Shown in pieces: positions 27,722 to 32,452 of a DNA stretch of 64,000 bases (position 1 is the stretch's first letter; every line of letters begins with the position of its first letter). Under the pieces are notes generated by a model. The model did no database searches. It was not told where the DNA came from and saw only the letters and a list, made by a program, of their open reading frames with translations. Source of the stretch: Escherichia coli O157:H7 (lineage in GTDB: Bacteria > Pseudomonadota > Gammaproteobacteria > Enterobacterales > Enterobacteriaceae); the NCBI RefSeq assembly GCF_013167455.1, contig NZ_CP038328.1; one strand, 5' to 3'. A program made the translations under genes and the position numbers.

Positions 27722-28858
27722 ATGAGCCACTTAGACAACGGTTTCCGTTCACTGACACTACAACGTTTTCCGGCGACGGATGACGTTAACCCGCTACAGG
27801 CGTGGGAAGCGGCGGATGAATATTTGCTGCAACAGTTGGACGACACAGAAATCCGCGGCCCGGTGTTGATCCTGAATGATGCCTTTGGTGCGTTAAGCTG
27901 CGCGCTGGCGGAACATAAGCCGTACAGCATTGGCGACTCATACATCAGTGAACTGGCGACGCGCGAGAATTTACGCCTCAACGGGATTGATGAGTCGAGC
28001 GTGAAGTTTCTCGACAGCACCGCCGACTACCCGCAACAGCCGGGTGTGGTGCTGATCAAAGTGCCGAAAACACTGGCATTGCTGGAACAGCAACTGCGTG
28101 CGCTGCGCAAAGTGGTCACGCCACAAACACGTATTATTGCCGGTGCCAAAGCCCGTGACATCCACACTTCCACGCTGGAACTATTCGAAAAAGTGCTCGG
28201 CCCGACCACCACCACGCTGGCATGGAAGAAAGCGCGCCTGATTAACTGCACTTTCAATGAACCACCGCTGGCCGATGCGCCGCAGACCGTTAGCTGGAAG
28301 CTGGAAGGTACTGACTGGACTATCCACAACCATGCGAATGTCTTCTCCCGCACCGGGCTGGATATCGGCGCGCGCTTCTTTATGCAACATCTGCCAGAGA
28401 ATCTCGAAGGGGAGATTGTCGATCTCGGTTGCGGTAATGGCGTTATTGGTCTGACGCTGCTTGATAAAAACCCGCAGGCGAAAGTGGTGTTTGTCGATGA
28501 ATCGCCGATGGCGGTTGCTTCCAGCCGTTTGAACGTTGAAACCAACATGCCAGAGGCGTTGGATCGCTGCGAATTTATGATCAACAACGCGCTCTCCGGC
28601 GTGGAGCCTTTCCGCTTTAATGCTGTGCTCTGCAACCCGCCGTTTCATCAGCAACATGCGCTGACCGATAACGTCGCCTGGGAGATGTTCCACCACGCCC
28701 GCCGCTGCCTGAAAATCAACGGCGAGCTGTATATCGTTGCCAACCGTCACCTGGATTACTTCCATAAACTGAAGAAAATTTTCGGCAACTGCACCACCAT
28801 CGCCACGAATAATAAATTTGTGGTGCTGAAAGCAGTGAAGCTGGGGCGTCGTCGGTAA
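27722..28858 (+). CDS. rlmG: 23S rRNA m2G1835 methyltransferase RlmG
   Basis: ATG at 27722 ([16 protein letters not shown]...) with GGAGGG RBS; SAM-binding DLGCGNGV motif; 378 aa. Confidence 0.9.
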
Positions 28859-28873
28859 GATTGACAGCTACCT

Positions 28874-28964
28874 GCCAGATAAGGCGTAAACGCCTTATCT
28901 GGCATACGTTTAGCACATTACCCCCAGGTCGGATAAGATGCGGCAAGCGTCGCATCCGGCAATG
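28874..28964. repeat. REP/BIME palindromic elements
   Basis: GCCAGATAAGGCGTAAACGCCTTATCTGGC perfect palindrome and GGTCGGATAAGATGCGGCAAGCGTCGCATCCGGCAATG REP. Confidence 0.7.
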
Positions 28965-29077
28965 TCTGCCCAGTTCTGGAATCGCGCTCCATAAAACAAA
29001 AAATCCCTGTCACCATCCTCTACATTCTCTTGTTTAGCGTTGTTTAACGTTTATTCTTCCGTCACACAGATAAATTC

Positions 29078-29131
29078 ATCCGTTGCCAATCTGTCAACGG
29101 ATGTTATCATATTGCCAATTTGTCAACGGAC
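29078..29131 (+). promoter_or_regulatory. higBA promoter with two operator-like repeats
   Basis: CCGTTGCCAATCTGTCAACGG (29080-29100) and TTGCCAATTTGTCAACGGA (29112-29130), two near-identical copies 32 bp apart, directly upstream of higB. Confidence 0.5.
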
Positions 29132-29141
29132 GTGATGAAGA

Positions 29142-29456
29142 ATGCACCTGATAACTCAAAAAGCATTGAAAGATGCTGCGGAAAAATACCCGCAACATAA
29201 AACGGAGTTGGTGGCTCTAGGGAACACGATTGCTAAGGGATATTTCAAAAAACCTGAGTCATTAAAAGCAGTATTCCCATCTCTGGATAACTTCAAATAT
29301 CTGGATAAGCATTATGTTTTCAATGTTGGGGGCAATGAATTACGTGTTGTAGCAATGGTCTTTTTTGAATCGCAAAAGTGCTACATACGTGAAGTTATGA
29401 CGCATAAAGAATACGATTTTTTTACCGCTGTTCATCGTACTAAGGGGAAAAAATGA
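29142..29456 (+). CDS. higB: Type II toxin HigB (ribosome-dependent mRNA interferase, RelE superfamily)
   Basis: 104 aa; 4-nt overlap with the downstream antitoxin gene; matches K-12 ygjN/higB position between rlmG and fadH. Confidence 0.85.
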   Translation: MHLITQKALKDAAEKYPQHKTELVALGNTIAKGYFKKPESLKAVFPSLDNFKYLDKHYVFNVGGNELRVVAMVFFESQKCYIREVMTHKEYDFFTAVHRTKGKK

Positions 29457-29869
29457 TTGCGATTGCCGACATCTTGCATGCAGGAGAAAAGCTAACTGCT
29501 GTGGCACCTTTTCTGGCGGGTATTCAGAACGAGGAACAATACATCCAGGCGCTGGAACTGGTAGATCATCTGCTGCTCAACGATCCTGAAAACCCCTTAC
29601 TGGATCTGGTGTGTGCCAAAATAACCGCGTGGGAAGAATCAGCGCCCGAATTTGCGGAATTTAATGCCATGGCTCAAGCCATGCCTGGCGGTATAGCCGT
29701 GATTCGTACCCTTATGGATCAATATGGTTTAACCCTTTCCGATCTGCCGGAAATTGGCAGTAAATCTATGGTGTCACGCGTTTTGAGCGGGAAGAGGAAA
29801 TTAACGCTGGAACACGCTAAAAAATTGGCAACGCGATTCGGCATTTCTCCCGCCTTGTTTATTGATTAA
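29453..29869 (+). CDS. higA: Antitoxin HigA (XRE-family HTH)
   Basis: 138 aa; C-terminal HTH (MVSRVLSGKRKLTLEHAKKLATRFGISPALF). Confidence 0.85.
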   Translation: MIAIADILHAGEKLTAVAPFLAGIQNEEQYIQALELVDHLLLNDPENPLLDLVCAKITAWEESAPEFAEFNAMAQAMPGGIAVIRTLMDQYGLTLSDLPEIGSKSMVSRVLSGKRKLTLEHAKKLATRFGISPALFID

Positions 29870-29875
29870 CGCGAC

Positions 29876-29900
29876 GTGCCGGATGCGTTGCATCCGGCAC
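29876..29900. terminator. Palindromic hairpin between convergent higA and fadH
   Basis: GTGCCGGATGC-GTT-GCATCCGGCAC perfect inverted repeat; no strong U-run. Confidence 0.4.
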
Positions 29901-29913
29901 TTCAATGCACGAT

Positions 29914-31959
<2,046 letters not shown>

Positions 31960-32062: not shown

Positions 32063-32452
<390 letters not shown>

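Follow-up and report, generated by a model that had tools for sequence, protein, structure and literature searches.

The intergenic region between rlmG and fadH was analyzed in a stretch of 64,000 nt from Escherichia coli O157:H7 (contig NZ_CP038328.1; the whole stretch is called the window in the following). The locus is almost certainly the chromosomal higBA (ygjN-ygjM) type II toxin-antitoxin (TA) operon of E. coli, and two repeats in its promoter region are its operators. No evidence contrary to the higBA identity was found. Both the identification of the operon and the operator reading, which an earlier note had proposed from the sequence alone, are right and had already been established experimentally. 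The module and its neighbors are arranged as follows:

29142-29456, plus strand: higB (ygjN), 104 aa, 38% GC, a RelE-like, ribosome-dependent mRNA interferase toxin
29453-29869, plus strand: higA (ygjM), 138 aa, antitoxin and repressor with a C-terminal helix-turn-helix (HTH) domain at residues 84-135
27722-28858, plus strand: rlmG, with its stop codon at 28856-28858
29914-31932, minus strand: fadH, convergent with higA

The rlmG-fadH interval contains only two open reading frames (ORFs), both on the plus strand and both encoding TA proteins. They overlap by 4 nt (ATGA), the toxin gene comes first, and it is coupled to the antitoxin gene in one operon. The toxin-first order, the short overlap, the lengths of the two proteins, and the position of the HTH domain had all been described in the earlier note, and they were borne out by the ORFs and the Pfam matches. 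HigB matched the Pfam family HigB_toxin (PF09907, HigB/RelE fold) with an E-value of 3.6e-22 and 78.9 bits, against a cut-off of 27, and HigA matched HTH_3 (PF01381, 1.4e-7, residues 84-135), an XRE-type HTH. Both proteins aligned end to end with the solved E. coli chains 5IFG, 6KML, 6KMQ, 6IRP, and 6JQ4; HigB aligned over residues 1-104 with 5IFG_A (5.9e-68) and HigA over residues 1-138 with 5IFG_B (3.9e-85). A further end-to-end match was to the chains 5YCL_A/B, which are named as the same molecules. In RefSeq, higB and higA are annotated between rlmG and fadH in thousands of genomes, and the query region was 100% identical to O157:H7 chromosomes. Two matches in PLSDB (H91 and H99) were to 'plasmids' of 4.8-4.9 Mb, which are evidently E. 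coli chromosomes. The GC content is 38% for higB and 48% for higA, compared to 54-57% for the flanks.

The promoter region contains the following features:

28962-29076, plus strand: non-coding leader of about 115 nt, upstream of O1
29077-29103: operator O1, a palindrome CATCCGTTGCCA-atc-TGTCAACGGATG with 12-nt arms (92%) and the core TTGCCAATCTGTCAA at 29083-29097, overlapping the -35 hexamer
29083-29101: repeat 1 (within O1), TTGCCAATCTGTCAACGGA
29083-29088, plus strand: -35 hexamer TTGCCA, the left half of repeat 1
29105-29110, plus strand: -10 hexamer TATCAT, separated by a 16-nt spacer from the -35 hexamer and preceded by TG, with 10 of 12 consensus matches
29112-29130: operator O2 (repeat 2), TTGCCAATTTGTCAACGGA, with its core at 29112-29126, between the -10 box and the start codon

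The two 19-nt repeats are the sole matches in the window when up to three mismatches are allowed, while 0.03 would be expected. Their presence in near-identical form had been noted before, together with a spacing of 32 bp. The true in-register spacing from start to start is 29 bp; the higher value arose because repeat 1 was begun three bases early (CCG at 29080) and the distance was measured to the TTG at 29112. A consensus scan found only one sigma-70-like site on the plus strand of the region, with its -35 hexamer on repeat 1 and its -10 hexamer between the repeats, and therefore, repeat 2 can be expected to lie over the transcription start region.

Comparison of the upstream regions revealed an operator consensus of TTGCC-N5-G(G/T)CAA, in which O1 usually is a perfect dyad and O2 usually has a GTCAA half-site. 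O1 is polymorphic at 29094 in the right half-site. K-12 has TGGCAA and thus the perfect dyad TTGCCAATCTGGCAA, whereas TGTCAA is present in the O157 window, in four other sampled E. coli strains, and in E. whittamii; it is the commoner form among the sampled strains. The TGTCAA form leaves O1 and O2 nearly identical, and the exchange might change the strength of repression.

Alignment of the upstream regions showed the highest non-coding conservation in the O1 core and in most of O2. E. coli, E. whittamii, Pseudocitrobacter, Citrobacter sp. 18056, and the Enterobacteriaceae isolate RIT691 all have the same O1 core. The Erwinia plasmid pJE01 and a plasmid of Atlantibacter hermannii have O1 at -59/-60 from the ATG and O2 at -30, with the -10 box in between, and their sequences upstream of O1 are unrelated to those of the chromosomal copies. 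The leader is homologous among the chromosomal higBA loci of four genera and absent from the plasmid copies. Thus, the spacing of 29-30 bp, the dyad symmetry, and the position of the operators are kept across genera and plasmids despite diverged surroundings. A sigma-54-like reading of a conserved TTCTGGAA..GCA block in the leader was dropped, as the -12 element is poor in E. coli (judged by eye) and the TGG is absent in Citrobacter sp. 18056.

Two palindromic sites thus cover the -35 box and the start-site region, as expected for operators, and binding and repression are known from the literature (PMC2814082; PMC8138530). The half-sites within each operator are 10 bp apart, i.e., one helical turn, which would fit the binding of one HigA dimer per operator. 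Two observations do not sit easily with this reading of the repeats. O2 is degenerate in two of the orthologues, those of Citrobacter sp. 18056 and isolate RIT691, and the 29-bp spacing corresponds to about 2.8 helical turns, which places the two sites on different faces of the DNA, so that cooperative binding is not implied. Sequence alone cannot prove binding, but the notion that the -35 region was duplicated by chance or slippage and that the repeats neither bind protein nor have a regulatory role has a practically negligible probability in view of their low chance expectation, their conserved symmetry, position, and spacing in chromosomal and plasmid copies, and the published repression and operator binding by HigA (PMC2814082; PMC8138530).

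Toxicity, mRNA cleavage, the mapped start site, autorepression, Lon dependence, and operator binding are taken from published work. Christensen-Dalsgaard et al. renamed ygjNM higBA and showed that K-12 HigB is toxic and blocks translation by cleaving mRNA that is being translated (PMC2814082). In K-12, a single transcription start site was mapped upstream of higB and none upstream of higA; the higB promoter was repressed by the whole locus and also by HigA alone, and the induction of higBA by chloramphenicol was Lon-dependent (PMC2814082). Figure 1 of the same article already shows the inverted repeats as putative binding sites. The affinity of HigA for the operator is nanomolar according to Jadhav 2020, as cited in PMC8138530. 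The electrophoretic mobility shift assay that had been proposed in the earlier note has therefore already been done in substance. The proposal that the repeats are operator-like is thus supported both by their fixed positions around the -35 and -10 boxes across genera and plasmids and by published autorepression and nanomolar binding. In addition, the E. coli type of HigBA has been called structurally divergent, and HigA of E. coli and Shigella inhibits HigB without covering its active site (PMC8138530).

Taken together, the operon would be expected to work as follows. One sigma-70 promoter would yield a bicistronic, translationally coupled transcript. HigB, a RelE-like toxin, would cut translated mRNA at the ribosome, and HigA, a folded dimeric antitoxin, would form a HigB-(HigA)2-HigB complex and repress the promoter. 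As O1 lies on the -35 box and O2 on the start-site region, their occupancy should block RNA polymerase, probably by steric occlusion. Upon inhibition of translation, Lon would degrade HigA, the promoter would be derepressed, and HigB would be freed. By analogy to K-12 HigB, the HigB of this allele can be expected to inhibit growth by ribosome-dependent mRNA cleavage and to be neutralized by HigA.

The module is flanked by repetitive extragenic palindromic (REP) elements:

28873-28904: upstream REP 1, a perfect palindrome with 15-bp arms (100% complementary), just after the rlmG stop codon
28928-28961: upstream REP 2, a hairpin that ends in GCATCCGGCA (28952-28961)
29876-29900: downstream palindrome with the arms GTGCCGGATGC (29876-29886) and GCATCCGGCAC (29890-29900), perfect over 11 bp, with a 3-nt loop; it holds the right copy of GCATCCGGCA (29890-29899)

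The REP pair upstream and the perfect palindrome downstream had both been recognized before, and the folding results agree: the upstream pair folds with -46.6 kcal/mol (z = -6) and the downstream palindrome with about -22 to -23.2 kcal/mol. The sequence GCATCCGGCA is half of a REP and occurs in 9 copies in the window versus 0.31 expected, and a related REP consensus occurs in 7 copies versus 0 expected. The elements are thus GC-rich, multi-copy, extragenic palindromes at the 3'-ends of genes, as is characteristic for REPs and bacterial interspersed mosaic elements (BIMEs). At E <= 1, a search of the locus against Rfam returned only sub-threshold matches to the REP-derived naRNA4 and one chance match to a CRISPR-DR model. 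A tandem BIME array with four REP copies and an exact period of 100 bp is located between fadH and ygjK (32112-32445, minus strand); it yields spurious overlapping ORFs of 74-86 aa in the six-frame list.

The origin of the downstream palindrome became apparent from the comparison with E. whittamii, where higBA lies between two full copies of the REP pair. In an anchored split alignment, the 61 nt between the higA and fadH stop codons of the window corresponded to the 115 nt of E. whittamii minus an internal segment of 54 nt, with 54 of 61 positions identical. Therefore, the downstream palindrome is a duplicate of the REP pair that has collapsed, so that the head of REP 1 is now joined to the REP 2 tail; the breakpoint lies at a GCG microhomology (29884-29887). 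It was also considered as an intrinsic terminator. However, a scan revealed nothing terminator-like at this position, and the stem is not followed by a T-run in either direction, so that it is not a canonical terminator. A REP-type hairpin at this position could stabilize 3'-ends. In Pseudocitrobacter and in isolate RIT691, another palindromic element, CCCTCTCCC...GGGAGAGGG, borders the module both upstream and downstream (L053 5150-5180 and 6105-6135; L071 5150-5190 and 6145-6175, respectively). It seems that the REP type of each lineage fills both spacers of the module.

The distribution of the module within E. coli was analyzed in 5,426 complete genomes. Presence was counted with sub-queries, and the numbers of orphan and empty alleles were obtained by subtraction. 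The higA gene was present in 4,376 genomes (~81%), and the promoter together with the 5'-part of higB in 2,847 (~52%), most of which have intact modules. An orphan higA allele accounts for about 1,530 genomes (~28%), and the site is empty in about 1,046 (~19%). Relative to the window, the two shorter alleles lack the following regions:

29054-29378: orphan-allele deletion of 325 bp, which removes both operators, the promoter, and codons 1-79 of higB and retains higA
28962-29899: empty-site deletion span of 938 bp, bounded by the 10-bp direct repeat GCATCCGGCA

The two copies of GCATCCGGCA are exactly 938 bp apart, and the breakpoint of the empty site lies inside this sequence. In the empty site, the upstream REP pair is still complete, with its unique linker, and is joined directly to CTTCAATGCAC beside fadH. 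The junction of the orphan allele, ACGTTTA|TGCTACATACG, has 1 nt of microhomology and was identical in 4 strains from different parts of the rlmG and fadH trees. Because of the identical junction at several tree positions, the orphan deletion is best explained as one event that was moved between backgrounds by recombination. Orphan higA genes at the fadH-rlmG locus of CFT073 and NRG857c have been described before (PMC7232551).

In the orphan alleles, the 138-aa ORF of higA is intact. Pairwise comparison of four alleles revealed 26 synonymous versus 3 non-synonymous differences, corresponding to a ratio of non-synonymous to synonymous polymorphism (pN/pS) of about 0.04, while the value for higA of intact alleles is 0.10. 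The apparent purifying selection is a lead rather than a result, as very few alleles were compared and diversity could have been brought in by recombination with intact ones. A consensus scan upstream of orphan higA found no sigma-70-like promoter, neither internal nor new. It is a tentative and rather doubtful idea that orphan higA is a working gene with a toxin-independent role, for example as a transcription factor or in neutralizing HigB of incoming plasmids (anti-addiction). A related idea is that the duplicated REP pair may inherently allow the module to be excised precisely and regained through recombination, which, if true, would explain the long-lived polymorphism of three alleles.

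Rarer alleles were also observed. The region matched in the O157 strain ERL06-2497 (NZ_CP032797.1) contains an annotated IS3-family transposase, and higB is frameshifted in strain EC19 (L099 2584-2897); these are further routes of decay. In Escherichia sp. MOD1-EC7003, a DUF1266 gene (Pfam, 1.7e-24; L007 5333-6130) replaces the upstream REP pair, the promoter with its operators, and higB, and it ends 19 nt before an intact higA; the REP pair is found only on the fadH side, downstream of higA. The DUF1266-higA allele is present in 2 of the 5,426 E. coli genomes. In E. albertii (L006 1834-2276), an insertion sequence, IS10 as judged by eye, apparently interrupts the DUF1266 gene. The DUF1266 protein could be a new partner of HigA or a mere neighbor.

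To place the module beyond E. coli, genomes of other species were scanned with RlmG, which yielded 80 loci. In about 70 other enterobacterial species, rlmG and fadH are directly convergent, 0-130 bp apart, and without higBA. Together with the ~19% of E. coli genomes, the empty-site alleles were thus found that the earlier note had asked for in relatives. Because such alleles exist, the idea of an accessory cassette survives the test set there, namely the presence of higBA at this site in all relatives. Orthologues at the rlmG-fadH site were found in E. whittamii (98% identity for HigB, 96% for HigA), Pseudocitrobacter faecalis (69% and 83%; L053), "Citrobacter sp. 18056" (64% and 72%; L069), and isolate RIT691 (69% and 72%; L071). 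The two plasmids with conserved operators, Erwinia pJE01 and that of A. hermannii, have about 70% nucleotide identity over higB and higA. An assembly titled Chryseobacterium sp. 18061 (L070, CACSKA010000008.1) carries an enterobacterial rlmG-fadH locus. In Enterobacter sp. kpr-6, the site is occupied by another insert of 1.58 kb with 36% GC (L057 5138-6717), which contains a DUF3289 gene (286 aa) and a DUF943 gene (175 aa) with a 4-nt overlap; neither matched a PADLOC model. This suggests that small AT-rich gene pairs have landed repeatedly at the rlmG-fadH junction.

Between genera, the third-position identity was lower for higBA (0.35-0.48) than for the flanks (0.50-0.61). For E. whittamii, it was 0.86-0.89 for higBA versus 0.81-0.85 for the flanks, so that higBA tracks the flanks. 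A recent transfer between genera was not supported, as higBA was no more similar than the flanks in any of the comparisons.

One old arrival followed by many losses is favored over a recent insertion in E. coli, although neither is proven. The old arrival is favored because the divergence of higBA between genera is at least that of the flanks, because the chromosomal copies share their leader, and because higBA of E. whittamii tracks its flanks. The probable order of events would be as follows. The module, consisting of the operators and two genes of low GC content, would be an accessory element of a type that is also plasmid-borne. It would have entered the rlmG-fadH spacer long ago and would have had a copy of the native REP pair on each side, of which the downstream one would later have collapsed to the 25-nt palindrome in E. 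coli, where the module now appears to be decaying. Two findings weigh against such a history. First, the GC content at third codon positions of higBA is still 0.36-0.55 in all lineages, without a shift to the host value, which fits poorly with a very long residence. Second, intact, orphan, and empty alleles are interspersed on neighbor-joining trees of rlmG (22 sequences) and fadH (20 sequences), which thus give no signal of polarity. The polyphyly of the empty alleles is no proof of repeated deletion, because recombination moves alleles between backgrounds, and loss by recombination between the direct repeats of the spacers would give a product indistinguishable from a never-occupied site.

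Alternatively, a discrete higBA cassette could have been inserted fairly recently, with the REP pair and the palindrome as its ends and the empty sites of E. coli as the ancestral state. Several results could be explained in this way, i.e., the empty sites in E. coli and the lack of the module in most other Enterobacteriaceae, the atypically low GC content, the homologous modules on plasmids, the difference of exactly 938 bp bounded by a 10-bp direct repeat, and the REP pair of Escherichia sp. MOD1, which is found only on the fadH side, like at the empty site. It has also been proposed that TA modules of E. coli reached intergenic regions by horizontal transfer (Ramisetty and Santhosh 2016, as cited in PMC5120126). 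However, the REPs are native, and the pair with its unique linker is also present in the empty site, so that it does not mark a cassette end; the palindrome is a decayed copy of that pair rather than a terminus; and the 10-bp direct repeat belongs to the REP sequence itself and is not a target duplication. In addition, orthologues occupy the same site in three other genera, with a shared leader of about 115 nt and a divergence at least as high as that of the flanks, higBA of E. whittamii diverges in step with its flanks, and the empty alleles are polyphyletic on the flank trees. A recent insertion is therefore considered unlikely. A transposon- or integron-type mobile cassette was rejected, as no recombinase, transposase, or integrase is encoded at the locus and the flanks are native REPs. 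Of the earlier proposal of a cassette bracketed by REPs, the part that stood is that the module is accessory, often absent, and of a type found on plasmids; the argument from the REPs was wrong.

A further possibility is that the main role of higBA is anti-phage defense by abortive infection rather than stress response or addiction, with the same operator regulation and with phage infection as the trigger. HigB matched the PADLOC models PD-Lambda-2_A (2.2e-15) and HigA the N-terminal part of PD-Lambda-2_B (2.8e-14). The presence/absence polymorphism is typical of defense genes, and the rlmG-fadH site of other species holds different small AT-rich gene pairs. However, the match of HigA (138 aa) is restricted to positions 7-118 of the PD-Lambda-2_B profile, which has 402 positions, and higA is followed by the convergent fadH instead of a third gene. 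Because both the long B protein and the third gene are absent, higBA is a relative rather than a member of PD-Lambda-2. Moreover, phage-encoded HigB homologues are only 34-41% identical, and phage-defense data for the higBA locus were not found. Judged from the sequence matches, a defense role is possible, but as the main role it has a low probability, lower than that of a recent insertion.

In summary, the finding is correct but ordinary. The ygjNM/higBA locus has been characterized genetically, biochemically, and structurally since 2010, and orphan higA genes and the horizontal transfer of TA modules have also been published before. A reading from sequence recognized a textbook TA operon and its operators correctly, and its value is mainly that of a calibration point. 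The comparative additions are threefold. The TTGCC-N5-G(G/T)CAA operator pair is found at fixed positions in chromosomal and plasmid copies and defines a minimal mobile unit of operators plus two genes; the frequencies of three alleles were determined across the complete genomes; and the downstream palindrome was traced back to a duplicate of the native REP pair that has collapsed. These additions bear on the decay of chromosomal TA loci and leave the understanding of the locus itself unchanged.

The closest known system is HigB-HigA of K-12 (YgjN-YgjM, b3083-b3082; PDB 5IFG, 6KML), which is likewise located between rlmG and fadH. According to an alignment read by eye, K-12 higB has two nucleotide differences from the window, both synonymous, so that the HigB proteins are identical, while HigA of the window differs from that of K-12 at two residues (H9 for Q and I31 for T). 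There is no difference in the promoter or in O2, while the right half-site of O1 differs as described above, and the upstream REP 1 of K-12 is another sequence variant. More distant systems are HigBA of Proteus vulgaris Rts1, HigBA of P. aeruginosa, and GraTA of P. putida, which are alike in the toxin-first order, the RelE-like ribosome-dependent toxin, the HTH antitoxin acting as autorepressor, and two operator sites at the promoter. In contrast, their antitoxins have an N-terminal HTH and belong to TIGR02607 (antidote_HigA, Rts1/Proteus type), whereas HigA of the window has a C-terminal HTH and scored only 19 bits with this model, below the cut-off of 47.7. The failed match agrees with the C-terminal HTH of K-12 HigA, which is unlike the Proteus and Pseudomonas types (PMC6987408).

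With regard to its distribution, higBA resembles ccdO157 of E. coli, as both have intact, toxin-inactivated, and absent alleles at one intergenic site across the species. Mine et al. reportedly described ccdO157 as a decaying chromosomal TA locus in 2009 (as listed in the references of PMC7167474). Unlike in ccdO157, higB was lost by one 325-bp deletion that includes the promoter, and the remaining higA ORF still appears to be under purifying selection.

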